A stretch of DNA of 64,000 nucleotides, from the IMG/VR virus record IMGVR_UViG_3300005573_001500, one strand, 5' to 3'. Shown one piece after another: positions 6,115-63,793 of this stretch. This DNA comes from a virus. Every line of letters starts with the position of its first letter. Within the stretch, counting starts at the first letter, position 1. Under the pieces are notes generated by a model. The model made no database searches. It was not told where the DNA came from and saw only the letters and a list, made by a program, of their open reading frames with translations. A program made the translations under genes and the position numbers.

Positions 6115-6120
6115 TTCTTT

Positions 6121-6351
6121 CTATCTCCTTAATATTTCTTTCAAGAATTTTTCCAATTCATTACGAACAGTACCTATGAGTTCAGAAAAAGAAGAAGCAT
6201 GAACAGCTCCTTCAGCAAGTTTCTCTTTACCGTAATAGAATTCTACTCTATATGTTCCAGGAAATATTCGTTTTATTTTTCCATAAAGTGGTTTATCATT
6301 AACTTTTATTGGATGCTCAATAGTAAGCGTTTTAACAGACACTAATACCAC
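6121..6351 (-). CDS. Hypothetical protein
   Basis: 76 aa ORF overlapping the upstream stop, in operon. Confidence 0.65.
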   Translation of the reverse strand: MVLVSVKTLTIEHPIKVNDKPLYGKIKRIFPGTYRVEFYYGKEKLAEGAVHASSFSELIGTVRNELEKFLKEILRR

Positions 6352-8522
6352 ACTTCTCTTCTTCTTTTAACAGCATAAGCACCAATAGCTAAACCAATTA
6401 TTCCGATGCTTCCACCAATAATGTATGGTAGATATTTCTGCCAATCTATAATATTGTAACCGCTTCTATATACTGTTATTGTTATAGGATTATTCCCAGA
6501 TTTCACGTAATGCTCTTCTGACGGTGTTTCCAAATACTTATTTGCAGGGTCGTAAACTCTAACTATAATTGTACCCTCAAAATATTCTAAGACAAATAAA
6601 GCAGTACCATCTCCAGCTTCGCCTGTAGTATGTACGTAGCGGAATTTACCATATTTTTCTCTAACTTCAACGTTTAAGCCGTTAACTTTATGCTTATCTA
6701 AAGCGTCTATACAAATCACTTGTACACTTGTTTTTTCAACTCCAACGCCAGCTCCTAGAAGTAAAGTGAAAGTTTTAGAGTCAGTGATTTCATACTTGTT
6801 GCCAGTAAATAGTATTACAGTAAACTCTGCATCTTTACTTAAAGTTCCAAGATTTCTAATAGTTATTGTTATATTTCTAGTTTCGGAAGAATTCATTATA
6901 ATCCAACCTGTTCCACTAACTACTTGCAAAGGAGCTGTTCCAACGTTAAAGCCTATTCCGACCTGACCGCTATCACCTTCGTTCTTTATTGTTGCAGTAA
7001 TATAATAATCATAACCTGGAACTATCTTTTCTTTAGGGTAGCTATAACTAACGATTTTCGGTTTTGTCCTAGGTTCTTGAACAACATATATTGTATCTAC
7101 AAGTTCAGATGAAATGTCTAAATTGAAAGCCCAATGCCAAGAATTGAGTGGACAGTATATTTTATATTTTGCACTATCAAAATCTATGCTGTAACCTTCT
7201 CCGAAAACATCAGTCTTTATTCTGTCTAAAACCGCTCCTGGAACATACTCTTTTCTTTGTCCTGTAACAGGGGCTGTAATGTTTTTAGCGGCAAGATAGT
7301 TCACTAAGGATAAACCATAAGGAAGTGTTTTTTGGTCTTCCAACACTTTAGGTCTAATCGGAAATATATGGTCATACCAATCTGAATCTGAAATGTTTAT
7401 AGCTCCAGGTTCACTAGTAGCATGAGGTTTATACCAGCCCGGATACTCATACTTATCAAATTTATCTCCGCACCAATTATAGCCTTCTGCTATAGGTTCA
7501 TAAGCATTAGTGATATATATAAGTCCTGATGGAGAGCCGTTGTATTCAGAATTATCTGCCCAAATATAGAAGGACCCCGTTTCGTAAGATGGGTTGCCCC
7601 ACCAATCATGATATATATGTGTGCCTTTAAACGTGTCTCCTCCACCAAACCAATAGTAACCATACTTCCATGAAAATTGGGAATTCCAGCTAATGAGACT
7701 TTCTAATCTTGTTAAGTCATTTACAAAAGTGTTATAATTATCAAGTAAATATTTAGTAGCATTTTCAGTAACTATTAGAAACCCATTCTCAACTGGCCCA
7801 AGAGTTATATATGAAGCAAAATATCCCGTATAGTGTAATAAATCTATTGTAAAATTCTCTTTAGGGTCATTCGGATTATGAAACTCTATAACTGATGGAG
7901 CACTATATTTTGCTAAATCTCCTGTAATTTCAATAATCCATCTTTTATTTGCTTTATCATATTTAGCATATTGATAGTCAGTTACTAAAGGAATTTCTCC
8001 ATTATAAGTCCGTTTTATTGCTGTAACAGCAAAAGGTATAACAAGTACTCTAGGTTGAGATTCTACTTTGTAAACGTCAGCATAAACAGCATCTACTACA
8101 GCTCCTTGTCTAGTATCTTTTTGACCTAATGTAATTCCTCCACAAGTTTTGGGGGTTACTAAATATCTACCAACATATTCAAGAGGTAATAGCCAGTATG
8201 GTTTATCTACAACACTTATTTTAATATACAAACTGCTTTGAACAGCCATGCTAGAGTTAATAGCCCCATAATTACGTAAAACACTATCATCTATTGTCCA
8301 CTCTTTTTCCTGAATTACTAGTGCAGATTCCCTCGTGTCGCCATATATTCTCCATACGCCTTTAACCCATTCCCTTCCAACTAATTCCGGTTTCTTTATC
8401 GTGTCTATTTTAGTAATAGAATATATAGTTAATCCAGCAAACGGTCTAATGAATACTCCAACTATTAGCCCCATTAATATTCCAATAACTAAAGCTAATG
8501 CAACAACCTGTTTCTTACTCAT
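6342..8522 (-). CDS. Large surface protein (aromatic-rich core, CARDB/Ig-like domains, C-terminal TM)
   Basis: N-terminal TM; YITATIKNEGDSG Ig-like strand; TM + KRRR tail. Confidence 0.7.
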   Translation of the reverse strand: MSKKQVVALALVIGILMGLIVGVFIRPFAGLTIYSITKIDTIKKPELVGREWVKGVWRIYGDTRESALVIQEKEWTIDDSVLRNYGAINSSMAVQSSLYIKISVVDKPYWLLPLEYVGRYLVTPKTCGGITLGQKDTRQGAVVDAVYADVYKVESQPRVLVIPFAVTAIKRTYNGEIPLVTDYQYAKYDKANKRWIIEITGDLAKYSAPSVIEFHNPNDPKENFTIDLLHYTGYFASYITLGPVENGFLIVTENATKYLLDNYNTFVNDLTRLESLISWNSQFSWKYGYYWFGGGDTFKGTHIYHDWWGNPSYETGSFYIWADNSEYNGSPSGLIYITNAYEPIAEGYNWCGDKFDKYEYPGWYKPHATSEPGAINISDSDWYDHIFPIRPKVLEDQKTLPYGLSLVNYLAAKNITAPVTGQRKEYVPGAVLDRIKTDVFGEGYSIDFDSAKYKIYCPLNSWHWAFNLDISSELVDTIYVVQEPRTKPKIVSYSYPKEKIVPGYDYYITATIKNEGDSGQVGIGFNVGTAPLQVVSGTGWIIMNSSETRNITITIRNLGTLSKDAEFTVILFTGNKYEITDSKTFTLLLGAGVGVEKTSVQVICIDALDKHKVNGLNVEVREKYGKFRYVHTTGEAGDGTALFVLEYFEGTIIVRVYDPANKYLETPSEEHYVKSGNNPITITVYRSGYNIIDWQKYLPYIIGGSIGIIGLAIGAYAVKRRREVWY

Positions 8523-8564: not shown

Positions 8565-9326
8565 TTATCTCACCATCATTCTTGCAACTATATCATACAA
8601 TGCGTGAATAACTATCGGAACAGTAATATCTTTACATTGAACCATGAAATACAAAAGCCAAAAACCTCCAACATAAGCTGTGAGTGTCCAAATAATCATT
8701 TCTGGACCAGTATAACTCATAATAGTGTGCAGTCCAGCCCATAAAGCATTACTTATCATTCCACCTATCCAAGGGCTTTTAACAAGTTTAGCTAACAAGT
8801 AAGGTATTATCCCTCTAAAGACTAATTCTTCTCCTGGAGCTACGAGTAACCCTAATTTGAAAACGTCATATAACAAGTTAGCATCTATTCTCATTGTTTG
8901 TGCAAAAGACATGAAGTTTACATAAACTGGAGCTAAAGGAGTGTACAGTTGAGGTTCTGTTGGGAACTCTGTTGTGTATGGTTTCCAGAGTAGTATTGAA
9001 AACTGTTTAGTTGAAATTATCTGAAAAAGTATAGCTGTAAGCAAAAGAGCAAACAATCCCACTAAAGTATATAAAATATACGTTAAAGCTTCTTTCTTTT
9101 CTTTCCAATCAGTAATTATACCAGATAAAGCGAAAATAGTTATACTCCCTAAAGTCATACTAGTGAAAAGAAATATCGCAATAACTTCAAAAATGTTAGA
9201 CATAGCTAAATGCAACAATATTCCCACAACTGCAAAAGAAAGAGTCAAAATAATAACGTAAAGCAACGGACTGTTATCAATTATTTCTTTGAAATCTTCT
9301 ACATCGAATTCGGGGATTAACTCCAA
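8565..9326 (-). CDS. CPBP (Abi/CAAX type II) family intramembrane glutamic protease
   Basis: Multi-TM; APGEELVFRG (EExxxR), ALWAGLH, VIHALYD motifs. Confidence 0.9.
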   Translation of the reverse strand: MELIPEFDVEDFKEIIDNSPLLYVIILTLSFAVVGILLHLAMSNIFEVIAIFLFTSMTLGSITIFALSGIITDWKEKKEALTYILYTLVGLFALLLTAILFQIISTKQFSILLWKPYTTEFPTEPQLYTPLAPVYVNFMSFAQTMRIDANLLYDVFKLGLLVAPGEELVFRGIIPYLLAKLVKSPWIGGMISNALWAGLHTIMSYTGPEMIIWTLTAYVGGFWLLYFMVQCKDITVPIVIHALYDIVARMMVR

Positions 9327-9596: not shown

Positions 9597-9830
9597 TCAA
9601 ATCTTTTTGCTCACTTTTACTTTTCTCATTTTCGGGTTAAACTCAATTGGTTTGTCCGTGAAGAGTCTTAAGTAACTTTTCGCTTCTGGAATAAGCCAAG
9701 AGTATTTCTTTGGTGAAATTTTTCGCCCATCCTCCCAGAAGGTAACGATGTAACGTCCACGGTTTAACAACGCATCTACGAAAACCCTTTTTTCCATTGC
9801 GTTCAATCCAAAACAACATTTATTTTTCAC
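9597..9830 (-). CDS. Hypothetical protein
   Basis: 77 aa ORF with GGAGTG RBS, in operon. Confidence 0.6.
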   Translation of the reverse strand: MKNKCCFGLNAMEKRVFVDALLNRGRYIVTFWEDGRKISPKKYSWLIPEAKSYLRLFTDKPIEFNPKMRKVKVSKKI

Positions 9831-9855
9831 TCCTTTGTATTATCTTAACTCCAAA

Positions 9856-10275
9856 CTAGTCTAGTACTCCTGGTTCTCCTTTAGCAACTTTAATACCATA
9901 ATTCATCAGTTCTTTGAAACCGTTACTCATATACTTACGGAACACTTTTTGAGCCACGAACATTCCCACCGCCCGTTTTTGTCCATACTTTCTTCTTAAG
10001 TGTTCAGCTAGTATTGCTATTTCACGTTTAGATAAATCACTTATTCTTTCTCCCGGTTTAAGTAGTCCGATAGCTATTGCTTCTCTAGTCATTAATCCTT
10101 TTCTAAGCTCTGGAATATATTTTGGACCTCTTCCAGGCGCACCTCTATCTTCTATTTCGTATGTTGTTGGTGGAACATAGTATCCTTTACGGTGTATAGT
10201 TTTCCCTTTTCTTTTATATGTAGTAGGTTTTACATGAAAACCTTTTCTATGAACAACTAATTTTCTTCTACCCAT
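9856..10275 (-). CDS. Highly basic protein with internal repeat (putative nucleoprotein)
   Basis: Lys/Arg-rich; HRKGFHVKPTTY and HRKGYYVPPTTY repeats; own TATA-like element upstream. Confidence 0.6.
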   Translation of the reverse strand: MGRRKLVVHRKGFHVKPTTYKRKGKTIHRKGYYVPPTTYEIEDRGAPGRGPKYIPELRKGLMTREAIAIGLLKPGERISDLSKREIAILAEHLRRKYGQKRAVGMFVAQKVFRKYMSNGFKELMNYGIKVAKGEPGVLD

Positions 10276-48724: not shown

Positions 48725-49874
48725 TTATCCAGCAAATTTGTTGGCATAAACGCCCATTTTAACTAGTTGTGAATCAGCGTATTTAATTAATGACTTCCAG
48801 ACGCTTTTTTCAAGTCTGTTAAAGACAAAATCCCGAAACGTTCCCTCATTTATATGTTCTCTCATTTTCCATATTTCCGTCTGATAAACGTGAACGTTAT
48901 GGATGGCCCGGAGAAGTCTCGCATGCGGCGTTCTATCTGCGAATTTTGATAGAGAATTTCCGCGACAAGCAGGACAAGAGCATTCCAACAACTTTTTCTT
49001 TTCTTCTTCATTTAAAGTTTTACGTTTTTCTCTTTCTGAAATAAATCGGTCAGATACTCCAGGAAGTTGTATCACACCATAACCCGCTTTCTGAACCCAT
49101 CCAACGTAATCGAAACTATCTGCCCCGCAAAATGTTATTAGGTACGCCATGGTTCCACCGGTTCCAAATACATGCAAAAATGCATCAGGCAGTTTTTGCC
49201 GAATGTAGATCAACATATCTATAACCTTTTTCTTCCCCCCCAACCGTCCCAGAACCCTTCGATGTCATCAAAAGGGGGACTAGGCTTCCAACTCCAATAG
49301 CGGGTGGATCACAACCAAGAATTTCTCCGACTTTTTCCAACATATAATCAAGCGTTTCTCTGTCATATCCATGAATGACTGGCAATATACTTAACTTATC
49401 ATTTATAGTCAAGACTTCTTCCAAATTTTTAAGAGTTTTATTGATTCTTCTCTGGTTTGATGCTCTACTAGCTTGGGGGCTTAAGGGGAAATCTAATTGG
49501 ACCGCAATATCACATTCTATTTCTTGTTGAATTGAATAAACTTGATTAACCGTCAAACCGATTTCACGTTTTGACGTTTGGAAACCTCCGCTATCACATT
49601 TCAAGCGCATTTTGGTTGATAGATGTTTTACAAGTCTCTTTCTTTCACCATTCTTATCTTGATATAGTAGATCGTAAGCGTTAGCAAGAAAACATTCCAC
49701 ATTATTAACTGAAAGAACTGTATGCTGAAACTCATAATTTTCTATAACTGAAAGCCCGAACCATATCGCAGGAGTATTCACCTCTTTTTTCCAAGTCCTT
49801 AAAACACCTGTTCTAGCAAAACCATCTTGCGCGCGCTTCTCAAAGTTTAATCTAAGCTGATTAATCATTAACAC
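48725..49874 (-). pseudogene. tRNA-guanine transglycosylase-like (archaeosine TGT/DpdA-type) gene split by one extra G in a G7 run
   Basis: ARTGVL, DSGGFQ, QLDFP, PVIHG, GVGSLVP, HVFG, ADSFD, CSCPAC...HN; G7 to G6 at 49235-49241 gives one 382-aa ORF; no PUA domain. Confidence 0.85.
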
Positions 49875-50463
49875 CCCTTTTTAATAAAGTGAAGAGCATC
49901 AAATTACCTCGCGTTTCTTGGTCGCATACTAATTTGAAATCAAGCATCTTACTAAGCCTCTGATGAAAATTTATATTAATTTTATGGGTAATGGACATTA
50001 TATCATTTCTCTAATAAGCTTCATCTTAAAAACGTCATTTAGAAATAATTGATGTTATAGTTCATAAGCCTAAATTTGGCGTTGCAGCTGCATGTTATAA
50101 TATTACGTTTGGATTCTTATATAATTGCACAACCATAGTTTTCACCTTGGGTGATACCTAATATTATAGCAGTATTCATCGCGTTTGTTCTAATATTACA
50201 CATTTACCTACTGAAAACTCCTAATTCATGCTATTGTCTTCGTCATCAAAATCTGCGAACAAGCAACTATATTGATAAGGACCGCTTTTATTTATCATTG
50301 CATTGCCTTGAGTTATGTTTTAACAGCAGTTCCATTAAATGAATGACTTAGAAAGGTTGTTGGCCCACTCCACTCTCGTTAAATTATCGACATATACTTT
50401 CCTTAAAAAGTCTGCCGAAATGTTTTATCAAGACCTTTCTTAACTAAAATGTGGTGATATCAC

Positions 50464-51105
50464 TTGAAAGTCTTTGTTTTGACAGAATGCGCTGCAACTA
50501 AAAAATATGATCCATCTAAGGCGCCTATAAAGTTAATCTTGGAGAAACACGGTTTACCGATTCCACATTATGATCTGGAGAATGAAGATAAATACAGGGA
50601 AGTGTTAAAAGAATACATTCTCCCTGCACTGGACATGTATGAGGGATCGTTTAACTTTGTTAAGAATCTTGTTACCCAATTACGTGAAAAAGGAAACTCT
50701 GTTTTATTGTTAATGATCTCTGCACGATATGGGTTGATAAATGAGCATACACCTATTATTCCTTATCAATGTACTTTTAAATGTCTCACAAAAGATGAAA
50801 TCCGTGAAAGGGCAAATAAATTGCAGATCTATGAAAAACTTGTACAGATAGTTAAAAATGAGTTCTTCCACTTATCCATAATCATATTAGGAAAGGATTA
50901 CTTTCTTACAATATTCGACAAAGAAAAGTCGAAGAATTTATTCAACGAATTGAAGACTGAGAGGCTAATAATTTTCGGAAGTAAAGATCTTGAACGAAAA
51001 ATTAAGTGTAGAGGAGCGAAAATAGAGTTTATTACTGTTAAAGGCATCGGAGATCGAAACAAAAAAATTGAAAAATTCGTTAATAAACTAACTTACAACA
51101 ATTAA
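50464..51105 (+). CDS. YaaA-like / DUF6884-like protein
   Basis: ECAATKK...PALDMYEG...MISARYGLI...IIPYQCTF...ILGKDY. Confidence 0.7.
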   Translation: MKVFVLTECAATKKYDPSKAPIKLILEKHGLPIPHYDLENEDKYREVLKEYILPALDMYEGSFNFVKNLVTQLREKGNSVLLLMISARYGLINEHTPIIPYQCTFKCLTKDEIRERANKLQIYEKLVQIVKNEFFHLSIIILGKDYFLTIFDKEKSKNLFNELKTERLIIFGSKDLERKIKCRGAKIEFITVKGIGDRNKKIEKFVNKLTYNN

Positions 51106-51126
51106 AACTTGTAAGTTGTCTTTTTA
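51090..51126 (+). terminator. Stem-loop plus T-run terminator
   Basis: AACTTACAA/TTGTAAGTT 9-bp stem followed by GTCTTTTT. Confidence 0.55.
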
Positions 51127-51266
51127 GTATTGTTTTGAAAAACCTCATATAGCCTTTTCTATAAAATCACCAAATTTACAAGTGATCACTATATTCAAAA
51201 ATCCAAGATGCCATGCATAAACGAGGTTAAGGTTCGATTTTCACTTTAAATCCTTTTAAGACATTT

Positions 51267-52424
51267 TTAGAAAGATAGGGTTGACTCTATGGTCGAAAAT
51301 AACTTTGAACCCTTGTCTAAAATTGCAATTATCTTTGGGAAGTTAATTGAAATTCCCCTTCCCACTATAAAACGATTATCTGCAATACCGCAAAAATATC
51401 GCTCGTAAGCGAATAGCATTCGTGGAAGGTCTATTCTGAAATCGTCTTTAGAAAAATAGTAATTCTGTTCTCTGAGTTTTCTAACCATTTCCTCAGCCCA
51501 TATCTCCCAAGAAGTAAGTTGTTCTGCGCTCATTTGCCTTTGTGCTTCATATATTTTCGATAAGAGAACATAATGTCCACCATATTTCAAAAGCACGTAC
51601 GTGATTATCTCTTTAAAAGTCTCGCTTTCCTTTCCAAACCGTTCGCCTAAGTTTAGCGTATATCTGCCTATAGCCGTGAGATGTCCTGCAGCATCAAGCA
51701 ATGCATTTTGTATCAAAAAGAGTTTGTAATTCAGCAGAAATGAAGATACTCTCGTTGTTCTTTGGAATCTTCTTGATAATACTTCATTCCATAATGTTGT
51801 TAGAACCTCGTTCAAGATATTAGGTTCTTGAGCTCCTTCTAACTCTTTTGAAATTCTCAGAGCTTCAAAAACTTCTTCAGGCGTTGTTTCTCTCCAGTAA
51901 GAATAAGAACGCCTAATACCCTTCACTGACTCTTTTATGCGTCTTGCTTGAGTCTTAACTATTGAAGCTTCTTTTGCTAGTTCTATTTCCTCAGGATTCT
52001 CCATTTTGTATGAGAAGAGCCCAATGTTCAAATCATTAATTTCTATAATTTCTTTCACAAAATCTGAAACTTCAAACCCTTCCATATTAGTATCAGGAAC
52101 AACAAGGTATGAAAGTGGAAAAATCGAATTATAGCTAATTGCTTGTCCAATTCCTGTAATATATTCATGTTTATAAACGTATGGTGTTTTTACTTCAAAA
52201 GAGACTGGAAGAGGTAGATGTTCTCCTGTTAATGTTGATTGTCCCATGTATCTCTCTAACTCTCTAATGTCTATATTTCTCATTCCATAAGGGACATAAA
52301 TGAAATCCGGTTTAGGAAAATCCATTGAAACATTTGAGATAAAAACATCGCCAAATAAATGTCTAAAATTTCGTAATATAACCCTGGATAAAAACTCGGT
52401 CAACTCGTCATGACTCAGACTCAT
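51267..52424 (-). CDS. Putative type II restriction endonuclease (PD-(D/E)XK)
   Basis: PKPDFIY...SFEVKT...GIGQAISY...YLVVP; overlaps the methyltransferase stop. Confidence 0.65.
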   Translation of the reverse strand: MSLSHDELTEFLSRVILRNFRHLFGDVFISNVSMDFPKPDFIYVPYGMRNIDIRELERYMGQSTLTGEHLPLPVSFEVKTPYVYKHEYITGIGQAISYNSIFPLSYLVVPDTNMEGFEVSDFVKEIIEINDLNIGLFSYKMENPEEIELAKEASIVKTQARRIKESVKGIRRSYSYWRETTPEEVFEALRISKELEGAQEPNILNEVLTTLWNEVLSRRFQRTTRVSSFLLNYKLFLIQNALLDAAGHLTAIGRYTLNLGERFGKESETFKEIITYVLLKYGGHYVLLSKIYEAQRQMSAEQLTSWEIWAEEMVRKLREQNYYFSKDDFRIDLPRMLFAYERYFCGIADNRFIVGRGISINFPKIIAILDKGSKLFSTIESTLSF

Positions 52425-53415
52425 AAATTAATCCGCCGTAGAGTTTTCTAATCAATGCATTGAATAATTTCTTTTGTTGATCGATTTTCTTTTCTTCTTT
52501 TCTAAAAATGAGGCAATATTGATGATGCCTGTTGCCAATATAACTTGAATAAACTCCCAAGGGAATGAGAGGCTTATCATCTTGCAACCATAATTTTTCG
52601 TCTTTAGGAACCCATTTTTCGCTTAATAACAATAACGTATCGAATGCGAGAGGGTAGAGTCTTCCATCAGCATAAATGTTGTTTGTAATTATGGTGAGAT
52701 ACCCTCCATCTTCGACCACATCATAAACCTTATCAAATATCCTCTTCTGTTCAAGCAGAAACCGTGCGTAATCATCGATGTTTCCCAAATCCCTCGGATC
52801 AGCTGAATACAGAGTAGGTAAACCTTCTTCTGTTCTCTTTTTTTGTCGGATATAGTTTCTTTTCAGCTGGTTCCAATATGGTGGCGATGTAATAACATAT
52901 TTAACTCTTGGGAGGCTGTGTTCTCTCCATATTTTGTCGATTTCTCTCGAATCTCCTACAATAATTATTTGTTTTGTCTCTCCTTTACCGGTGAATTTAT
53001 CAATTTTGGTTTGATTTTTTACATTTTCTAGCCTTAACTTAGCGATGTTTGCCCAATGTTCGGATAATTCTATTCCTATGCCATTTCTATCACATTCGTA
53101 ACATGCAATCAATGTTGAGCCACTGCCGAGAAATGGGTCTAAAACCCAATCTCCCTTTTTTGTAAAGAATTCTATGAATTCTCCTATTAAAGACTCTGGA
53201 AAGCTTGCGGGATGTTTGATTTTATCATTATCCCTTGGAGGGGGGACATGTATAAACCAGCTCTTTTCTGATATTCTTCTATTTTCTGGTTTGTTATAGT
53301 CGCAGATTTTTCCTCCTTCAGAATTGTAAACAGCCCACGATTTCGTGAATTTCAACCATTCTTTGCCAGATAAATCATTTAGCTTGTTATTGCTCCTTTT
53401 TTCCTTCTCTATCAT
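52408..53415 (-). CDS. Amino (N4-C/N6-A) DNA methyltransferase
   Basis: HPASFP, VLDPFLGSGST (motif I), GIEL, ITSPPYW (motif IV). Confidence 0.9.
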   Translation of the reverse strand: MIEKEKRSNNKLNDLSGKEWLKFTKSWAVYNSEGGKICDYNKPENRRISEKSWFIHVPPPRDNDKIKHPASFPESLIGEFIEFFTKKGDWVLDPFLGSGSTLIACYECDRNGIGIELSEHWANIAKLRLENVKNQTKIDKFTGKGETKQIIIVGDSREIDKIWREHSLPRVKYVITSPPYWNQLKRNYIRQKKRTEEGLPTLYSADPRDLGNIDDYARFLLEQKRIFDKVYDVVEDGGYLTIITNNIYADGRLYPLAFDTLLLLSEKWVPKDEKLWLQDDKPLIPLGVYSSYIGNRHHQYCLIFRKEEKKIDQQKKLFNALIRKLYGGLIYESES

Positions 53416-53706
53416 TTTTATTATCCAAATTAAGCTATGCGTTTAAAGATTTATAAATTCTCTTAGGTTGTCTTTAATTTTTAAATTTTAGGAAGCGCCG
53501 TTTAACCTTGCTTACCATAGACGTTTTGGTGCCATTTATTGTTCAATCAGAATTATTTTTGGTTTTTGTTCAGTTCGAAAGAAAATTGCCAAGAATTGTG
53601 AGGTTGGGAAGTGAAAATCTGGAATCTGACAAAAGCTCAACTGGTTGCGAAGAATAATGGTCATATACTTTTCAAATTTTATATGTCTATGTAATGGAAT
53701 TATTCT

Positions 53707-54357
53707 TTAAAGAAATTTTGTCAAGCCGACAACTATTAACGATGACCCGACAGTTGCCACGACCCTTTCATAAACCATCAGAGGCAAAATTCCAACAAAT
53801 AGTTCCCATGGAAGCCCAAGTAAATGTACCGCAAAGATCATCATCATTCCTTGCTCAGTCATAGTTGAGATATAAGCATACAATGGTGTCTTCAAATGCA
53901 TTAGTGTCATTTTCTTAAAAGCACTTAATGCGGCAAACGCTATTGCGATCGAATGAGGAACTACGAAGTATGGGAACGGGTAATTTTTGATTAGGTAAGC
54001 TGTAATGGCAATCGCTAGAAAAGCGGAGGTTGCTAGAGCGCCTTTATTTGCTTTATGATAGGTCAAGCTTCCAAATGTTGCTCCCACAACTGGCAGTAGA
54101 ATTGTGTATGGGCCGAACATGGCTTGCGACGGCGCAATATAAAAGGCTAGGGTTCCTCCAAAAAGTGATGCAAAAAAGGCCTCTAATGGAGGTAAAATAA
54201 TGGCGATTACGGGAGTTATTATGAGGTTTAGCGCTAGGAAGCTTGGTGTTCCAATAAAGACGCTTATCGGCACAAGGCTTGTAGCTGCGTAAAGCGCGGC
54301 AAAAACCCCTATACGAGAAGCCCTAAGCGCCTTATCAGACGATTTAACCAGCTTCAT
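53707..54357 (-). CDS. ECF transporter S-component-like membrane protein
   Basis: VFAALYAA...PVIAIILPP...SLFGG; about 6 TM. Confidence 0.65.
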   Translation of the reverse strand: MKLVKSSDKALRASRIGVFAALYAATSLVPISVFIGTPSFLALNLIITPVIAIILPPLEAFFASLFGGTLAFYIAPSQAMFGPYTILLPVVGATFGSLTYHKANKGALATSAFLAIAITAYLIKNYPFPYFVVPHSIAIAFAALSAFKKMTLMHLKTPLYAYISTMTEQGMMMIFAVHLLGLPWELFVGILPLMVYERVVATVGSSLIVVGLTKFL

Positions 54358-54677
54358 TTCTTCACCTTACCAGCAAGCAAGTCCTCATAAACCCGTCTCA
54401 TATGAAAAATAGCCGCAACAGTCTCTTCAGGAAACATGCATCCGCAAGCACCACATTTAGGACATATCATCCAACTGCATTTTACACAGATCTTCGCTTC
54501 AGAAGAGCTGAAACGTTCACCGCACTTAAAGCAGTAAACATATGGGTCAACCATAAATTGCAAAAAGTTTTCTATAAGCCTTGAAAGAGGAATATGTTTT
54601 TGATCCGCCACGAGCTTTGCCCTGCTTAAAATTGTTCCATCCAATGTTATTGTAAGCTTAACTCTAGACGTACTCAC
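54354..54677 (-). CDS. RHH (DUF6364/CopG-like) regulator with Cys-rich C-terminus
   Basis: KLTITLDGTILSRAK...LSRLIENFL; CFKC..CVKC..CPKCGACGC. Confidence 0.75.
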   Translation of the reverse strand: MSTSRVKLTITLDGTILSRAKLVADQKHIPLSRLIENFLQFMVDPYVYCFKCGERFSSSEAKICVKCSWMICPKCGACGCMFPEETVAAIFHMRRVYEDLLAGKVKK

Positions 54678-55033: not shown

Positions 55034-55822
55034 TTGGTGTTTATGTTTCAATGGCCTGAGGAAATTCCTTACAAGGAGTACATTAGGCTCTATATTTTAG
55101 AGAAAACACTTAGACAGTTTGTCGTTTTTCAACTGACAAAAATAAGTGAAAAATGGTGGAGACGGAGAATACCCAATGACGTCTGGGATAAAGCTGAAAA
55201 ACGAAAGATGGAAGAGGAACGTAGATTGACATACTCACTTGACTTGCATCCAATCTGGTACGTTGACTTCGGTGATTATGTGAAAATTATCACACGAGAA
55301 GATAACTGGAAAGACATTTTTAAGGAAATTTTCATCAGCGAATGCCGATTTATGGCAGCTATGGAAATGCTTGAGCCAATACGAAATAAAATTGCGCATA
55401 TGCGACCGTTAAGTGTTAGAGAGAAGAAAAACTTAGATGCGTTAACTGAGGATCTCTTAATACCAATATGGAAAGTTTACAACACTATATACGTAGAAAA
55501 GGCTGAAAAGCTAACAAAAGAGAGCATGTGGAAAGAAGCAGAGCAAATTCTCAAGAAGGGATACGAAGAGACAAGAGGTGATCCATGGATAGCGTACAAA
55601 CTTGGAGAACTCTACATTCACGTGAATAAAATAGAAGAAGCTAGGCATTGGCTAAAGATTGCAATTAAGTATTTACCCCTCAATCGGTACAAGAGATTTG
55701 TTCTCCAAAAACTTCGTGAAATAAAAAACAAAACAAAATTAAAAATGAAAGTTTGCCCTCAATGCGGAAACAAAACGCAAGCAGAGCACAAGTTCTGCAG
55801 TATGTGCGGCTTCAAATTCTAG
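55034..55822 (+). CDS. Swt1-like HEPN domain protein with TPR-like repeat and zinc ribbon
   Basis: LEKTLRQFV...WW...YVDFGDYVKII...W..IF...IRNKIAH (Rx4H); CPQCG...CSMCG. Confidence 0.8.
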   Translation: MVFMFQWPEEIPYKEYIRLYILEKTLRQFVVFQLTKISEKWWRRRIPNDVWDKAEKRKMEEERRLTYSLDLHPIWYVDFGDYVKIITREDNWKDIFKEIFISECRFMAAMEMLEPIRNKIAHMRPLSVREKKNLDALTEDLLIPIWKVYNTIYVEKAEKLTKESMWKEAEQILKKGYEETRGDPWIAYKLGELYIHVNKIEEARHWLKIAIKYLPLNRYKRFVLQKLREIKNKTKLKMKVCPQCGNKTQAEHKFCSMCGFKF

Positions 55823-55834
55823 AGGGCTATTTAT

Positions 55835-55996
55835 TCAAGTTTTATTTTCTACAACTAAGCAATTTCCATCAATTCGTATTACTATTTTTTTCTTTATGTC
55901 AAGCGGGAAGTTAGAGTCTGTAATTAAGTCTTTAGGTAAATAAAGGTAATGTCGACCATTTGTCCGGTAAATTTTTGACTCTGCCTCTTTAACCAT
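55835..55996 (-). CDS. AbrB/MazE-like DNA-binding protein, 53 aa
   Basis: MVKEAESKIY...YLYLPKDL...FP...IVIRIDG..LVVE; start reassigned to ATG 55996. Confidence 0.75.
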   Translation of the reverse strand: MVKEAESKIYRTNGRHYLYLPKDLITDSNFPLDIKKKIVIRIDGNCLVVENKT

Positions 55997-56060
55997 GTTA
56001 TCGTCATAAAATTGGTTATTCGAAAGTATAAAAATTTTTCTAAACCTTTGTATAGAAAAG

Positions 56061-56104
56061 CTTATATAAGAGTTTATACATGAGTATAAACTAGGGTTTA
56101 TACA
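56061..56104. promoter_or_regulatory. Divergent promoter with operator array
   Basis: Palindromic CTTATATAAG (56061-70); AGTTTATAC-N4-GTATAAACT (56071-92); third half-site GTTTATACA (56096-104). Confidence 0.65.
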
Positions 56105-56107
56105 ATA

Positions 56108-56866
56108 ATGAAGGAAAAGTTTCAAAACAACATGGATGCGCTATTAAGGCAATTGTTAGACTGCCTTGACAAGGTCTGTGAGAAAATAGCTGAAAAGTTC
56201 GACTTGTATGATATGCGGGGCAGAGCTAGAAAGGCGTTCATCGTGGATACGTTGATGAGATACCATTGTTGCGGCTGCATTGCGAAAGTGCTTATGGAGC
56301 GAAAAAGCGGCGGAGCCGACGCATTATATATCGAGAACCACGCGCTTGCAGTGAACCTACTCATAGGAATGTTAAAGTATCAAATTAGTGTCAACGATCT
56401 ACCACTCGATGTTTTCGGAGAATTAAACGGAAACCTCGGCATAATTGACTTAGTTATAACCCCAACAAGGAGCGGCTTAATTCTGGAGGCAAAAGACCAT
56501 GAAGTCATCGTTGAAGTTAAGACTGGCAAAACTTTCTCCTATTTTCAGCTCTTTCGATATCTTTTCGGAAGACCAAACGCAACAATGATATTTTGGAGAG
56601 TTACCGAAGGGCAAGTTATTGTATTGGAAGGCAAAAAACTACAAAAGCTATTAATGCTATGCGCTGCAGCTGCTATTCACCGCGGGCTGAGTATACTTAA
56701 CGCAGCAAACGTTACATGTAACCATTCCCCTAACTGCAATAAAAAAACGACAATTGATGATCCACAGGAATTAGTGGTAGATTTTCTAGAATCGCTTCAA
56801 GAGGGCATCCCAAAAGTTGTTGGAGTGATTTTATCGATACTAAATCAAGAGGTAGGATCGATATAA
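56108..56866 (+). CDS. PD-(D/E)XK nuclease-like protein
   Basis: GIIDLV...IVEVKTG...FQLFRY. Confidence 0.6.
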   Translation: MKEKFQNNMDALLRQLLDCLDKVCEKIAEKFDLYDMRGRARKAFIVDTLMRYHCCGCIAKVLMERKSGGADALYIENHALAVNLLIGMLKYQISVNDLPLDVFGELNGNLGIIDLVITPTRSGLILEAKDHEVIVEVKTGKTFSYFQLFRYLFGRPNATMIFWRVTEGQVIVLEGKKLQKLLMLCAAAAIHRGLSILNAANVTCNHSPNCNKKTTIDDPQELVVDFLESLQEGIPKVVGVILSILNQEVGSI

Positions 56867-56867
56867 C

Positions 56868-57812
56868 ATGAACGAAAATAAATTAAAAGAAAATGTAACG
56901 TTTGCAGCTATATACGCTAGAACATCATCCCCGAATCAGCGTTTTAACTACAGCATAAAAGAACAGGTTCATCAGTGCTGGAATTTCTGCCTTCATAGAG
57001 GCTGGGTTGTCAGATATGTGTTCATCGACGAGGCGCAAAGCGGCGGAACTGTTGAAAGGCCAAAGTTTCAGCTGATGTTGCAAAGGGCAAAAGAAGGCAG
57101 ATTCAACGTTATTGTGTTCTGGAAGCTTGACAGATTTTGCCGGTCGCTTGTGGATCTGGTCAATATTGAAAGGATGTTGAGGCAGTGGAATGTCGGGCTA
57201 TGTAGTGTAACGGAGTTTATTGACACAACAACACCTGTTGGACGCTTTAACTTCCGAAATCTAGCTTCTGTGGCTGAGCTTGAGCGAGAGATTATAGGCG
57301 AGAGGGCACGTCTCGGATTGCATGCACTTGCCCGCCAGGGTAAGTGGCCCAACCCTCATCCACCGCTTGGGTACGACAAACATGAAGATGGGCGTCTCGT
57401 GATAAACAGGGCAGAAGCTGAGCTCGTAAAGAAGATTTTCCAACTTTACCTCAAATACAAATCTATGAGCCATGTAGCTTACCTCTTGAATAAGGAAAGG
57501 GTTCAGACCAAGAGAGGCAGACGATGGAATGCCAGGGCCGTTAAAGACGTACTCGCTAACAAGTTGTATATAGGTGGGTTTGATGTTGCGGGCGCTAACA
57601 TCAGCATAGAAGAATATAGAATTATTGACGATAAAACATTCAATACCGCCCAAAAGCTGAGAGCCAGATTTATTTCTCAAAAGAGCAAGAGATCACCTAT
57701 GCAGCATGATAGAAAGCTGGAGCAAATTGAAAGGATCATTTCCAGATATTATGAGACGTTAAGAAAATACAATATAAAACTAAACTTCATGGAGGATTCA
57801 GCTGAATGGTAG
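56868..57812 (+). CDS. Serine recombinase (resolvase + Recombinase domain)
   Basis: IYARTSSPNQ, WKLDRFCRS, AELEREIIGER...G...A.QGKW, W....VKDVLANKLYIG. Confidence 0.92.
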   Translation: MNENKLKENVTFAAIYARTSSPNQRFNYSIKEQVHQCWNFCLHRGWVVRYVFIDEAQSGGTVERPKFQLMLQRAKEGRFNVIVFWKLDRFCRSLVDLVNIERMLRQWNVGLCSVTEFIDTTTPVGRFNFRNLASVAELEREIIGERARLGLHALARQGKWPNPHPPLGYDKHEDGRLVINRAEAELVKKIFQLYLKYKSMSHVAYLLNKERVQTKRGRRWNARAVKDVLANKLYIGGFDVAGANISIEEYRIIDDKTFNTAQKLRARFISQKSKRSPMQHDRKLEQIERIISRYYETLRKYNIKLNFMEDSAEW

Positions 57813-58645
57813 ATGATACTCTAACGGTCTTCAAGGTCAATTCATGTCCAGCGTGCAATTCCACAACGCTGGAGAATTTCATGAATAGGCAAGTAGTATG
57901 CTGTGATTGCGGCTTAGTAATAGATTCAGAAATTAGAGGAGACAATTATGTGAGGAGTACAGACGGATCGCGCCAGGCAACTGGTAAACGATTAACAGCT
58001 GTAGCCAATCAACATGAAAACGATTTTTCAGAGTGGCAAAAGCTCCTAAAAGTTTCAGATAGTACGGAAAGGAATGCTGCAATCATATTATATTACATTA
58101 CAAAAATCGTCAGAAAACTTCAACTTCCATTTTCTATTCTGGAGAAGTCCGTAAATATCTATAGGACTTTGATTGACAAGTGTAGCTTTAAGGGCATGAG
58201 GCTTAGGGCTGCAAGCGCCGCAATAGTTTATGCATCATGTAAAATCGCAGAAATACCATGTAGTATACGAGAAGTCGCGAGTATCTTAAATGAAGACTCC
58301 CGAAAAGTTTTTCGTATCTATTCGACTATAGCTGAGCACCTAGAAGTCCCACCCACTCAGTCAAATATTAGCAAACTTCTACATCAAATATGCGAAGTAA
58401 TCAATGTCAAAGAGTTGCCTCGGAATATTGCCAACAAAATTATAGATATTATAGGGAAAACTAGAATAACACAAGGGAAAAACCCATATAGCTGCGTTGC
58501 GGCAGCTATTTATATTTCATCAATTCTTGTAGGAAGAAAGAAAACTCAAAGGGAACTATCTAAAATTACTCATGTGACTGAAGCGTCCATTAGAACAAGA
58601 TACAAAGAGATAATTCAGAATTTACTTTTCACGATCTCCATTTAA
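57806..58645 (+). CDS. tfb: Transcription initiation factor IIB paralog
   Basis: CPAC...VCCDCGLVI zinc ribbon; DSTERN; two cyclin repeats (KGMR..AAIVY; QGKNP..VAAAIY...TQREL...VTEASIRTRYKE). Confidence 0.9.
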   Translation: MVDDTLTVFKVNSCPACNSTTLENFMNRQVVCCDCGLVIDSEIRGDNYVRSTDGSRQATGKRLTAVANQHENDFSEWQKLLKVSDSTERNAAIILYYITKIVRKLQLPFSILEKSVNIYRTLIDKCSFKGMRLRAASAAIVYASCKIAEIPCSIREVASILNEDSRKVFRIYSTIAEHLEVPPTQSNISKLLHQICEVINVKELPRNIANKIIDIIGKTRITQGKNPYSCVAAAIYISSILVGRKKTQRELSKITHVTEASIRTRYKEIIQNLLFTISI

Positions 58646-58752
58646 CTTTCAATATGTTGGTGTTATTTATGAGAACTTTAGCAAGATTTCGCATTTTCAA
58701 CCGCTACGAGTATCTTCACTCTCATCTCAATTCCTTTCCGTTTAGTTTTATT

Positions 58753-60267
58753 TCACATGTAGCTTGATAAGATACGTTGAATTCCTTTTTCCTTGAATTT
58801 TGTCAGGATATAGTCAAGGTTATTGGTTGATCGTAGCGCTTTAATAAAAGTTTTCAGAGCTTCTTCCCGTTTGATAATCCACTCGGCGATACGTTCTAGC
58901 TCATCTCTCTTTATTAACCTACGTTGAACTCTATCTCTTTTGCAAATGTAAGATTGCCCATTTAATATCATAGCTTGCTTACAAATTGGACAATACGGGG
59001 CGACATTATCGAAACATTGAAGTATATCATATCCGAAAACTTCCACCATTTCATCTATAGGCTTTCTTTTACGTTTATATTCCTCTTTTTTACTTTGAAT
59101 GATTTCCTGAGCCTTCATGAATATTTCCATTGGGATGAAAGTGAGAGAAGGGTCTTCAACCTCCACGTTGCCAAACAGCTTTTCAACGTTTCGAGAACCA
59201 AACTTTGGCTTTCCTATGTATACAGGGTTCGTTAATATGTTAGCCACACGCTCAGGATTTAAAGGCCTAGGAAGTAAGTCTTTATACTTTGCGTTAATCA
59301 CCTCTGCCACCTTACTATACTCTTTACTTTCTAAAAATGATCTAAATAGGTCGGTAATTAGGGGTTCATATGTTGGTGTCTTCTTAATCCATAGACCACA
59401 TTTCTCATAACCAATGGGTATGGGCATGTTCCATCTGCGGTTCTTAAAGTTATGTATTTTTGAGCTAAGTGAGACATACGTGCGCCGTTTATTCTCTTCC
59501 TCAGCTTGATAGGCCTTGAGCGACGTTAACACTAGGTCATATAAACGTTTAACATCGATTTCTTCTGTTAACGTAATCGTCAATACGTTGTGAGCTCGCA
59601 ACTGCATTATAAAACCTAGTAGTTCAAAAGATGCTCTCCCTATACGGTCTACGTTGCGTATCAAAAACTCGCTAATTTCTCCCTTCTCTGCTAAATATAG
59701 AATGGCACCTAGCTTTTTACGATTAAAATTTTCACCACTTTTTGCCTCTACGAAAAGGTAAAGCGTACTTACACCTCTTCTCTTAGCCAACTCCACAAGT
59801 TCTTGCCTTTGAACTTGTAAGCTCTCTCCCTTGGAAACTTGTCTGGAGGTGCTAACTCTTGCATAACCCACAGCTTTTTTACCCGATCCACCCTCAAGAT
59901 TGATAATTTCATCGATCGGCAAAAGTATCCTTAAGGCAATTCCCCTAAGATTATCCTCACCTTGATCCCGCTCAGTGTTATCTGCTACCTCTTCAATAGC
60001 GCAAGAGTTGGGTTTCAAAATAAATTTATCGAGGGTGACTCCCAACAGAAATACCGGCACGTGTATGATTGGCATGTGGATTATATGCGAAATATATGAT
60101 TGGTATAAGCCTTCAAAAATCAGAAGTATGATTATGGGATATGTTTTGCGAAAAGATTTTATAAAAAATATGATGCGCTTAGCCAAGGCAGATCGCATCA
60201 TACAGAGTTCATAAATTTTGCGAAAAATTATAGTATCAAAGGCTAGTTTCATAATTTTACTTTTCAT
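58753..60267 (-). CDS. Large serine recombinase with N-terminal extension and zinc ribbon
   Basis: VGYARVSTSRQ, RNVDRIGR, YQAEEENKRR, NILTNPVYIG, CPIC...YIC; true start uncertain. Confidence 0.9.
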   Translation of the reverse strand: MKSKIMKLAFDTIIFRKIYELCMMRSALAKRIIFFIKSFRKTYPIIILLIFEGLYQSYISHIIHMPIIHVPVFLLGVTLDKFILKPNSCAIEEVADNTERDQGEDNLRGIALRILLPIDEIINLEGGSGKKAVGYARVSTSRQVSKGESLQVQRQELVELAKRRGVSTLYLFVEAKSGENFNRKKLGAILYLAEKGEISEFLIRNVDRIGRASFELLGFIMQLRAHNVLTITLTEEIDVKRLYDLVLTSLKAYQAEEENKRRTYVSLSSKIHNFKNRRWNMPIPIGYEKCGLWIKKTPTYEPLITDLFRSFLESKEYSKVAEVINAKYKDLLPRPLNPERVANILTNPVYIGKPKFGSRNVEKLFGNVEVEDPSLTFIPMEIFMKAQEIIQSKKEEYKRKRKPIDEMVEVFGYDILQCFDNVAPYCPICKQAMILNGQSYICKRDRVQRRLIKRDELERIAEWIIKREEALKTFIKALRSTNNLDYILTKFKEKGIQRILSSYM

Positions 60268-60469
60268 AAACTCTAGGCTCCACCCTTAATATGTTCAGCC
60301 AGGTTTCCAGTTTGGCCAAGAAGTCTCCAGTCTCTAGTACGTCCCTCTCAGCAAGCAGGACAAAACGTAGTGGATGATTGGGAGGAAACCTCTTTAAGAT
60401 TAATGACTTTAGAGGTTTTATGTCCACTTTAGCCGTACATCGGGTTCGCGGATTTTTTCTTTTGCGCAT
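60257..60469 (-). CDS. Small helical protein upstream of the recombinase
   Basis: PLRFVLLAERDVL...FLAKLETWL; coupled to the recombinase. Confidence 0.6.
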   Translation of the reverse strand: MRKRKNPRTRCTAKVDIKPLKSLILKRFPPNHPLRFVLLAERDVLETGDFLAKLETWLNILRVEPRVYEK

Positions 60470-60630
60470 TATCGTTTATTCCCTTTCATTTAGAGCCACA
60501 AAATCTTGGGTTTTTAAGCTTTTTCAAAAATTTTTTTAAGCCCTTTTGCGTAAATAAGCTCCAATTCGGATCTGGAATACAAATTGATGACTTTTAAAAA
60601 GATTTTTTATAAAGTTTAAAAAGGAGAAGT

Positions 60631-61984: not shown

Positions 61985-63793
61985 TTAATAGTATCTAATG
62001 TATTTCTCGCGGTCATATGTTTTAGGCGGTCTTTTCTGTTGTACAAGTAATGCCAATCTTTGAGTTAGGTTAAGATGTATTTTATCAACAAATGTTGCCA
62101 AATCTTTCTGATATTCTGCGGCTTCCGCAACTGCTATTATTTTATATATTAAACTTGAATCAAGGCTTATTGTGCCAATAGTATTACCCAACTCTATCAT
62201 TCTGCGTTGTAAGCTATAACCAAGTTGCGAGTTATCTTCAATTGCCCATATTAGAAGTAGCAAACCATGAGAGGCTTTGTCTGCGTCAATAAGGGATATT
62301 AAATCTACGTAATCTTGGAACTTAGTTTTACCACCATATAAACGTGCATGGGGAATATGCAACTTTTCATCCCCAATTACATATTTCACTGCAATTTTTG
62401 CATCTCCAAAAGACCATATCTTTAATGTATCACAAGGTTGAATAGGCTTGGCGCTTGGATTAAAAGAGTTTTCAACTATAGGTATCTGTGACACAACAAC
62501 ACCAATTAAATCTGCAAATCGTTCTATACTACCAACTATTGTCTGAACTGATACACCCGTACTATACTTTATGATTATTGATTTTTCAATAGCCTCTAAT
62601 CTTCTGGCGAGCGTCTTCTCTAAAATTGTCGGACCGAATTCCTCAAGTATCGACTTTGCGCGCTCCACCCATCCAAGCCATGGATATGATTTTGTAATTT
62701 CTAATAAATTCTCAATAGTAAGTTCGTCTCTAATCACTTCGACTTTTCCCTTACTCCGCATTCTGTTGATGCATTCACCGCAAAAACATACTATGTCTCC
62801 TGCAAGTTGATCTGTCACTCTATATGACATTTCAATAGCTAATGGTGTAAAAGGATAAATTGATAATTTTTCAGACCCCGCAGTACACGTGCAATCGTCG
62901 TCTACTGGCAATTCAACGCTGTTGTTTGCACACCATTGTTTTATGTATTCATGAACCAGTTTAAAACATTGATGTAGAGTTAGTTCAGTTATAACTTGTC
63001 CTTCTTCAGCAAATTTGAATCTCCTTGCTTTTGTTCGTGCAGGTTCCGTTTCTTTGACCTCTGCCCATGCGGGTGTGGTAAGTGCAAGCAATATTATGGC
63101 TCTTTTCAAATCGCTAGTCATATTTCGAATTTTTTCTAAGAGCATTCTGACAGCTTCTGCGCTTGCTTTTTGTTTTGTTAAATTTTCTTCCGGAGCTGTT
63201 TTTGCCCTCACCAGATACTCTGTTTCCCTGGCGCTGAGATATTCTTCTACGTTGTCAAAAGCAATGCATATCACCGATTGTTCCGGCAACAAGTTTGTAA
63301 TGTTTTCTGCTAGTTTGCGTATGGCCTCAACGCTAAGTGAACCTACATCGAGGCTTTGATCGATTAGTTTCAACAAATTTGTCTTTATATCTGATCGAAT
63401 TTCAGCATTTAATATCTTTTCTTTAGGTATTAGCGTGGATAAACGCCTGATCGAATCGGGGTTTAAGAATAACTCTTTCCATATCTCCTTTTCGTCAATT
63501 TCTAAGTCACTTAATCGGTAAATCATGTAGATTCCTGGGTAAATGCCTTTTTCATAGAATAAGTAATCAAGATGCCGAAGTAGATGAGTTTTGCCTGATC
63601 CTGGCATTCCAACTATAAACACGCATTCTGTTCCTTCCTGTTTTGTCCTATTGTTGTATAGTTCTTTAAACCATTGTAGATACACATCACCTCCAATCAT
63701 AAAGGAAGGTCGTCGTGGTGGTTCTGGATAAGGAAAAGGATTTTCGCTTTCAAGTAACTTTCTATTAAATTTTTCATATGACATGGAATTCAC
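61985..63793 (-). CDS. AAA+ ATPase with helical lid and C-terminal domain (defence-island type)
   Basis: FIVGMPGSGKT, IAFDNVEE, YPFT...GDIV..C. Confidence 0.75.
   Translation of the reverse strand: MNSMSYEKFNRKLLESENPFPYPEPPRRPSFMIGGDVYLQWFKELYNNRTKQEGTECVFIVGMPGSGKTHLLRHLDYLFYEKGIYPGIYMIYRLSDLEIDEKEIWKELFLNPDSIRRLSTLIPKEKILNAEIRSDIKTNLLKLIDQSLDVGSLSVEAIRKLAENITNLLPEQSVICIAFDNVEEYLSARETEYLVRAKTAPEENLTKQKASAEAVRMLLEKIRNMTSDLKRAIILLALTTPAWAEVKETEPARTKARRFKFAEEGQVITELTLHQCFKLVHEYIKQWCANNSVELPVDDDCTCTAGSEKLSIYPFTPLAIEMSYRVTDQLAGDIVCFCGECINRMRSKGKVEVIRDELTIENLLEITKSYPWLGWVERAKSILEEFGPTILEKTLARRLEAIEKSIIIKYSTGVSVQTIVGSIERFADLIGVVVSQIPIVENSFNPSAKPIQPCDTLKIWSFGDAKIAVKYVIGDEKLHIPHARLYGGKTKFQDYVDLISLIDADKASHGLLLLIWAIEDNSQLGYSLQRRMIELGNTIGTISLDSSLIYKIIAVAEAAEYQKDLATFVDKIHLNLTQRLALLVQQKRPPKTYDREKYIRYY

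Follow-up and report, generated by a model that had tools for sequence, protein, structure and literature searches.

What might a paralog of transcription factor B (TFB), an archaeal basal factor, be doing between two serine recombinase genes? The question is raised by positions 56108-60469 of a stretch of 64,000 nucleotides from IMG/VR virus record IMGVR_UViG_3300005573_001500, the whole of which is referred to here as the window. This region encodes a nuclease-like protein, a mid-size serine recombinase (SR), and a TFB-like protein (TFB*) on one strand and, facing them, a large serine recombinase (LSR) and a protein of 70 aa. The region is shown here to represent a recombination cassette that is conserved among archaeal genomic islands. 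Because this cassette is conserved and jointly inherited, and because TFB* has lost the parts used for initiation, the protein probably acts together with the recombinases and not as an ordinary initiation factor.

An initial annotation, made from the sequence alone, had taken the region for a mobile cassette carrying its own basal factor. A synteny survey has since revealed that the recombinase-TFB unit is not unique to this genome. TFB lies directly after SR in every locus long enough to tell (11 of 11), and the convergent LSR is present in 10; eight of these 10 also contain a homolog of the 70-aa gene directly upstream of LSR (L001, L002, L100, L102, L103, L104, L105, and L106). The loci come from two metagenome contigs and eight Bathyarchaeia genomes. 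Both contigs, L001 with 94% DNA identity and L002 with 53% identity in TFB, display nuclease, SR, and TFB facing LSR. Across the cassette loci, identity to the window copy ranges from 49 to 95% for SR and falls to 30% for TFB*, while the two genes overlap by as many as 80 nt or lie as far as 14 nt apart. The Bathyarchaeia genomes were searched with SR in two overlapping samples of 401 genomes each. The first yielded SR matches at 61-69% identity in 2 of the 401 genomes and only distant recombinases (29-33%) in four more; close matches were detected in 7 of 401 in the second. One cassette (L103) is located on a 2.35-Mb contig and is therefore chromosomal there. A metagenome scan with a pattern common to canonical TFBs returned ordinary TFBs in 78 of 80 loci, and IMG/VR, scanned with alignments of the TFB and of the nuclease, returned no matches. 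The copy in L106 (L106:8467-9870 and 4197-6789) is decayed, with SR divided into two open reading frames (ORFs), the LSR region into several, and TFB still open. A second copy in G414 was assembled only across the SR gene and may reflect strain mixing in the bin.

The zinc ribbon and cyclin folds attributed to TFB* from the sequence are borne out by profile and model. Pfam assigns two TFIIB repeats (PF00382, 1.8e-23), the match to the P. woesei TFB core (1D3U/1AIS) reaches 204 bits over 196 residues, and the AlphaFold2 (AF2) model comprises two five-helix repeats. The zinc ribbon scores 26 bits with PF08271, below the 29-bit cutoff; its four cysteines (C14, C17, C32, C35) are all invariant in the TFB* alignment, and the AF2 model places ribbon strands at 22-39. 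The C-terminal helix that reads the B-recognition element (BRE), of the TQREIAE..VTE.T.R.RYKE type, is mostly kept and is more variable than in canonical TFBs, the recognition-helix variants among cassette TFBs including RTRYK, RSTYK, RNQCK, RARCR, and CTRYQ. The suspected divergence of the B-reader and linker was also right, and proves to be a trait of the family. None of the 10 cassette TFBs has the motifs of the B-reader (GPEWRAF...R[ST]RVGAP) and of the B-linker (HDKGLST), whereas all four canonical TFBs aligned with them do; these four come from Bathyarchaeia-like contigs and have identical motifs. In the cassette proteins the motifs are replaced by a spacer of ~40 aa that varies in length and sequence; residues 42-72 of the TFB* model, with pLDDT below 50 and no secondary structure, are predicted to be disordered. 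The NCBIfam TFB model PRK00423 gives 160 bits on TFB* against a cutoff of 384, and only residues 55-277 align, with profile positions 88-310. The zinc ribbon of TFB is known to recruit RNA polymerase, the core to bind TBP and the BRE, and the reader and linker to help open the DNA and to act at the active site (PMC6212726, PMC7289017). Because ribbon and core are kept and the reader and linker are lost, TFB* is predicted from its sequence to assemble on promoters without supporting normal initiation.

The phylogenetic analysis of TFBs, based on a profile search of 1.8 billion representatives in which the motifs were scored by regular expressions, showed that TFB* is not an ordinary paralog: it falls in a separate clade lacking the B-reader and linker. 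The 10 cassette TFBs and 30 motif-less representatives lie on one side of a branch with 100% SH-aLRT support, and the opposite side holds 69 representatives with the motifs and 13 scored as motif-less by the regular expressions. Besides the cassette TFBs, 30 or more clusters at 50% identity belong to the clade, at least 40 in all. Short relatives of the window TFB measure 263-304 aa. Every clade member with readable context sits between two recombinase genes; for four relatives (P0007, P0010, P0015, and P0016), longest contigs equal in length to those of SR homologs give a mere hint of co-occurrence.

Gene identities provide additional evidence for inheritance as a unit. Taken descriptively, pairwise identities among eight loci correlate between SR and TFB (r=0.84), TFB and LSR (r=0.76), and SR and LSR (r=0.68), whereas those of the nuclease do not follow SR, TFB, or LSR (r -0.26 to 0.05). 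Between L103 and L105, the nuclease is 85% identical as DNA and the tyrosine integrase 84%, SR reaches only 67% DNA identity, and TFB and LSR cannot be aligned as DNA; by such identity comparison TFB* evolves fast. SR-TFB*, LSR, and the 70-aa gene make up the coherent inherited unit, and the nuclease occupies a modular position, since the identities of SR, TFB, and LSR co-vary, that of the nuclease does not, and the nuclease is replaced or occurs alone. Its slot is held in L092 and L106 by an unrelated DUF2130 protein, and in L081-L084 a nuclease of the window type, as a rule accompanied by a 175-aa partner gene, occurs without SR or TFB. The nuclease of the initial annotation is present and Cas4-like, but is not a fixed cassette member: it is replaced in two loci, exists without recombinases or TFB, and shows no identity co-variation. 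A DDE/SWIM (IS240-like) transposase follows the window-type nuclease in L084:9941-11954, and a homolog with 38-40% identity to that copy follows a DUF2130-type nuclease in G556:C3 (L124:10169-12559). The transposase after both unrelated nuclease types mirrors the occurrence of both types before SR-TFB elsewhere.

The five ORFs that fill the region are listed in Table 1. Coordinates agree with the coupled operon described earlier: the gap from nuclease to SR is 1 nt, the ATG of TFB* overlaps the SR stop by 7 nt, and the opposing LSR start overlaps the 70-aa gene by 11 nt, with 107 bp separating the convergent TFB* and LSR genes. The G+C content of the window is ~36%.

Table 1. Genes of the recombination cassette, with positions in the window
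Feature	Position	Strand	Remarks
Cas4-like PD-(D/E)xK nuclease, 252 aa	56108..56866	+	Exchangeable first operon gene
Mid-size serine recombinase (SR), 314 aa	56868..57812	+	PF00239 and PF07508
TFB-like protein (TFB*), 279 aa	57806..58645	+	Two TFIIB repeats; without B-reader and B-linker
Large serine recombinase (LSR), 504 aa	58753..60267	-	PF00239 and PF07508; convergent on the TFB* gene
Small conserved protein, 70 aa	60257..60469	-	First gene of the LSR operon

Both recombinases possess the Resolvase (PF00239) and Recombinase (PF07508) domains, with E values of 1.9e-34 and 1.3e-14 in SR and of 6.1e-18 and 5.6e-07 in LSR. Their catalytic motifs are intact in the window: YARTSSPNQ and DRFCR in SR, which are kept in intact copies, and YARVSTSRQ and DRIGR in LSR. 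SR matches the phrog_95 integrase (1.1e-80) and ends ~50 aa past PF07508 with no Cys cluster; the zinc-ribbon/coiled-coil domain that large serine integrases possess appears to be missing from it. Its homologs form 846 90%-identity clusters at E<=1e-60, some of which bear names from Bathyarchaeia, Jordarchaeaceae, Odinarchaeia, and Hadesarchaea, the close homologs (>=60% identity) among them. Conservation of the family at >=60% in Bathyarchaeia, Asgard lineages, and Hadesarchaea therefore suggests, as far as sequence identity can tell, movement between phyla. LSR has a C-terminal CPICK...C motif resembling a zinc ribbon, followed by a helical tail; both were recognized by eye, and no zinc-ribbon recombinase profile match was returned. 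The best NCBIfam match of LSR is XisF, at 80 bits and well below the cutoff. An N-terminal extension of ~125 aa (59893-60267) contains the motif FRxIY..MIRSALAxRI and then a hydrophobic, membrane-helix-like stretch, with Kyte-Doolittle 19-residue means of up to 2.6 in L002 and 1.76 in the window; motif and hydrophobic segment are conserved in eight of nine cassette loci. A membrane-tethered recombinase, if LSR should be one, would be unusual. The 70-aa protein matched none of the profile libraries searched. Its conserved core reads LPxxSPLRxILLxEEDE...FLAKLPVWLKLSR, and it may act as a directionality or regulatory factor.

The nuclease itself has no match in Pfam, PHROG, NCBIfam, or PADLOC. 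In 26 aligned homologs D114, an E136-V-K138 motif, C54, C57, C204, and H206 are invariant; the CxxC...CxH residues form a putative metal site of three Cys and one His, for comparison with the four-Cys Fe-S cluster of Cas4/AddB. The AF2 model (pLDDT 85) has a strand order of the PD-(D/E)xK type, and its nearest folds, at middling Z scores of 6-7.5, are mostly PD-(D/E)xK enzymes, the matches comprising Hjc (Z 7.5), restriction-endonuclease-like proteins, D212, Bax1, and Cas4-like ACE1. The neighbours in the ESM Atlas, a language-model resource, are all PDDEXK_1/Cas4 clusters (0.95). Because the invariant D...ExK motif, the neighbours of the modelled fold, and the Atlas neighbours agree, 'nuclease', with a putative catalytic motif, is a fair reading of this protein.

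Relatives of the window cassette have been found in islands apparently integrated at tRNA genes. In L002, L103, L105, and L106 a homologous tyrosine integrase (~430 aa) follows the 70-aa gene at a distance of 1-2.7 kb, and L091 has a more distantly related one in this position. The integrase abuts tRNA-Pro in L103, L105, and L106 and tRNA-Arg in L091. The smallest tRNA-side islands (L091 and L103) measure ~7 kb and hold little besides the cassette and the integrase region. A related island, G556:C3, ends in the same genes, with an integrase at tRNA-Arg, and is without SR, TFB, or LSR. Defence genes occur in the cassette flanks, namely Dnd (L106), UvrD+PDDEXK+DpdA and AbiJ (L102), and SNF2-NOV_C (L100); Csm6 lies near L083, a nuclease locus without SR or TFB. 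DpdA-like, 216-aa, and DUF6364 genes are common to the left flank in the window (48725-54677) and to L102:1765-7487, which has an intact PD-(D/E)xK and UvrD helicase pair. By analogy with these relatives, and from the left flank common to L102, the window cassette would belong to a genomic island.

The mobility proposed for the cassette thus stands as regards the joint inheritance of SR, TFB, and LSR and the tRNA-side islands of relatives, but not as regards ends, an empty site, or flanking repeats. No inverted or direct repeat consistently flanks the cassette across the loci compared. A 16-nt inverted repeat at 56702/56893 has no counterpart in other loci. The five genes are bracketed by a direct repeat of 20 nt, AT-rich and TATA-like (56030-56049 / 60526-60545, 17/20 matching), each copy being ~76 bp upstream of the start codon of one operon. 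Compared with shuffled sequence this match is marginal (p ~0.01), and six other loci do not show it. No far-end partial tRNA repeat was detected in L091, L103, L105, or L106, where one borderline 26-nt match (L103:5228) was obtained. An empty-site comparison in G553 gave no ends, being confounded by rearrangement; the block of host sequence next to tRNA-Pro in relatives is ~640 kb away there, beside a 96% repeat, which points to such an event. In L119 (G498:C7), a 63-nt partial copy of tRNA-Pro(CGG) at 9000-9061, ~770 bp from the intact gene (9827-9904), looks like what an earlier integration at this tRNA left behind.

Several features border the cassette in the window. An 8-bp perfect inverted repeat, GTTTATAC-ATGA-GTATAAAC, is located at 56073-56105, just 5' of the nuclease start codon, and is followed by a third GTTTATAC, an arrangement that is operator-like in appearance. 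A minus-strand ORF at 55838-55996, 53 aa from an internal Met, appears AbrB/SpoVT-like by eye and has no profile match. It shows 79% identity to the gene that precedes the pair of partner and nuclease in L083 and ~90% in L001, and the nucleases beside these homologs are only ~38% identical between L001 and L083. The region 55839-56098 was also considered as a remnant of the 175-aa partner gene; this was rejected, the region being the small minus-strand ORF. Upstream, the plus-strand gene at 55034-55822 encodes a Swt1-like HEPN, TPR, and zinc-ribbon protein that matches the PADLOC candidate PDC-M34B (4.5e-16). On the other side, the minus-strand gene at 61985-63793 encodes a 602-aa STAND/AAA NTPase with a weak mads_8 match.

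How could a TFB without its reader and linker serve such a cassette? We infer that the two recombinases act together and that TFB* acts with them. A tentative answer, to which we give rather less than an even chance, is that TFB* is a promoter-occupying, initiation-dead factor gating the convergent recombinase operons. The promoter-occupying role is proposed because the ribbon, the core, and most of the BRE helix are kept while the B-reader and B-linker are lost. The two serine recombinases, with their intact catalytic motifs, would act as a pair on putative sites, in a logic resembling that of CcrAB, and TFB* would be made in step with the smaller of them. It would sit on TBP/BRE-TATA DNA and touch RNA polymerase through its cyclin core, BRE helix, and zinc ribbon; devoid of B-reader and B-linker, it would neither open the promoter nor set the start site. 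TFB* might then compete with the host TFB at the cassette promoters, and perhaps at others, and by gating the convergent recombinase operons could couple the state of transcription to recombination.

Several points weigh against this proposal. TFB paralogs can act unconventionally, as does TFB3, so that loss of the B-reader is no proof of inactivity (PMC7289017). The variation of the recognition helix fits site-specific DNA recognition as well as promoter competition, and where repression is the aim, a plain repressor would be simpler than a TFB. The pairs of loci behind the correlations are not phylogenetically independent. As to the setting, no tyrosine integrase was seen in the 64-kb window by Pfam search, and no tRNA or Rfam match is present there; nor did the analysis find recombination sites, element ends, an empty site, or an excised form.

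The alternative that survives best, although rather unlikely, assigns TFB* to recombination itself: together with host TBP, it would bind and bend BRE-TATA-like DNA as a structural or targeting subunit of the recombinase complex, making good the DNA-binding or architectural function missing from SR, or would aim recombination at promoters. It would account for the translational coupling of TFB* to SR specifically, for an SR without the third DNA-binding domain of large serine integrases, and for the strongest co-variation of TFB* being with SR. TFB* was found only with recombinases and is absent from the related G556 island that is without them; furthermore, its DNA-reading helix is diversified, and the parts it has lost are those needed only for RNA synthesis. 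Aiming at promoters would resemble the case of the Ty3 integrase, which is targeted by TFIIIB/Brf1. On the other hand, the zinc ribbon, whose known job is the recruitment of RNA polymerase, is strictly kept, and no SR-TFB fusion was encountered among 26 long proteins within the best 150 representatives. No candidate sites were identified, and the literature search provided no precedent: it returned nothing on a TFB with serine recombinases, and no paper uniting serine recombinase, TFB, archaea, and mobile. A full site-specific recombination machine, in which a TBP/TFB module selects or bends the site and might aim the cassette at promoters, is likewise unlikely. Present evidence does not firmly discriminate between the gating of recombinase operons by TFB* and its role as an SR cofactor.

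Less probable again, and distinctly doubtful, is a working alternative initiation factor for island or cassette genes, in which the divergent linker or TFE would do the job of the B-reader. TFBs are common on mobile elements (224 plasmid records, Halorubrum tailed viruses, and the Sulfolobales viruses YNP1 and YNP2), and the intact ribbon and core of TFB* agree with such a role. However, its linker is conserved neither in sequence nor in length and is predicted from the model to be disordered, the plasmid and virus TFBs inspected do not lie beside recombinases, and a general activator would leave the strict position between two recombinase genes unexplained. Quite improbable is an anti-virus or host-takeover device, in which TFB* would jam viral or host promoters while nuclease and recombinases attack or rearrange invading DNA. 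The fast evolution of TFB* and the defence-rich flanks, with HEPN/PDC-M34B and the STAND NTPase in the window and Dnd, AbiJ, and Csm6 elsewhere, speak for it. Against it, PADLOC returned no match for the nuclease, SR, TFB*, LSR, the 70-aa protein, the partner, the DUF2130 protein, or the tyrosine integrase; the cassette is the conserved core and the defence genes are variable cargo, and recombinases are not known as defence effectors. That an ordinary TFB paralog came by chance to lie between unrelated recombinases is scarcely credible, for although archaea often have several TFBs, the synteny survey refutes it with the same order in 11 loci down to 30% TFB identity, a separate clade, and three-gene co-variation.

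Whichever role TFB* plays, the cassette has a wider interest. TFB and TFIIB are among the most conserved transcription proteins of archaea and eukaryotes, and here a whole clade has shed the segments that reach the polymerase active site, while it remains under selection and genetically tied to two serine recombinases. The clade offers a natural experiment on a TFB of ribbon plus core, as repressor, former of poised complexes, or recombination cofactor. If the last were true, it would be an archaeal counterpart of the targeting of Ty3 through TFIIIB/Brf1 and the first basal transcription factor recruited into prokaryotic DNA recombination. The cassette also marks out, by its recognizable core, a family of small islands in archaea in which defence genes accumulate, and serine recombinases with a new accessory logic are of interest as genome-engineering tools.

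Among known systems, the canonical archaeal TFB (P. woesei/P. furiosus, 1AIS/1D3U; PRK00423) shares with TFB* the four-Cys zinc ribbon, the two cyclin repeats, and the C-terminal helix-turn-helix. TFB* differs from it by the missing B-reader and linker, the disordered spacer, its separate clade, and its place between serine recombinases. TFB3 and TFB2 of the Sulfolobales are likewise TFB-derived, specialised, and not replacements for the housekeeping TFB (PMC7289017, PMC6101594). Unlike TFB*, these proteins are not known to be linked to recombinases or mobile islands. TFB3 keeps the ribbon and is without the cyclin core, a truncation opposite to that of TFB*. The Halobacterium pNRC plasmids, T. 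barophilus pTBMP1, Halorubrum tailed viruses, and YNP1/YNP2 resemble the cassette islands in carrying a TFB-family gene of their own; their TFBs, however, are less than 30% identical to the cassette TFB, and the genes of pTBMP1 and YNP2 have no recombinase neighbours.

The parallel with CcrA/CcrB of SCCmec, drawn in the initial annotation, holds loosely. Both systems place two proteins with Resolvase and Recombinase domains side by side on an island, and the best NCBIfam matches of the cassette recombinases are CcrB (133.7 bits against a cutoff of 900), CcrA (97.7 against 700), and XisF, the scores being far below the equivalog cutoffs. The SCCmec genes are co-directional, whereas those of the cassette are convergent and unequal (314/504 aa), have a TFB gene between them, and occur in archaeal hosts. 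With respect to other large serine recombinases (XisF, SPbeta SprA, TP901-1, and phiC31-type), the small SR is distinguished by the apparently missing zinc-ribbon/coiled-coil domain and LSR by its hydrophobic N-terminal extension. Finally, the archaeal elements integrated at tRNA genes by non-split tyrosine integrases of the pNOB8 type are matched by the relatives of the cassette in which an integrase abuts tRNA-Pro or tRNA-Arg; to this plan the cassette islands add two serine recombinases and TFB* as their core, and they carry no replication genes.

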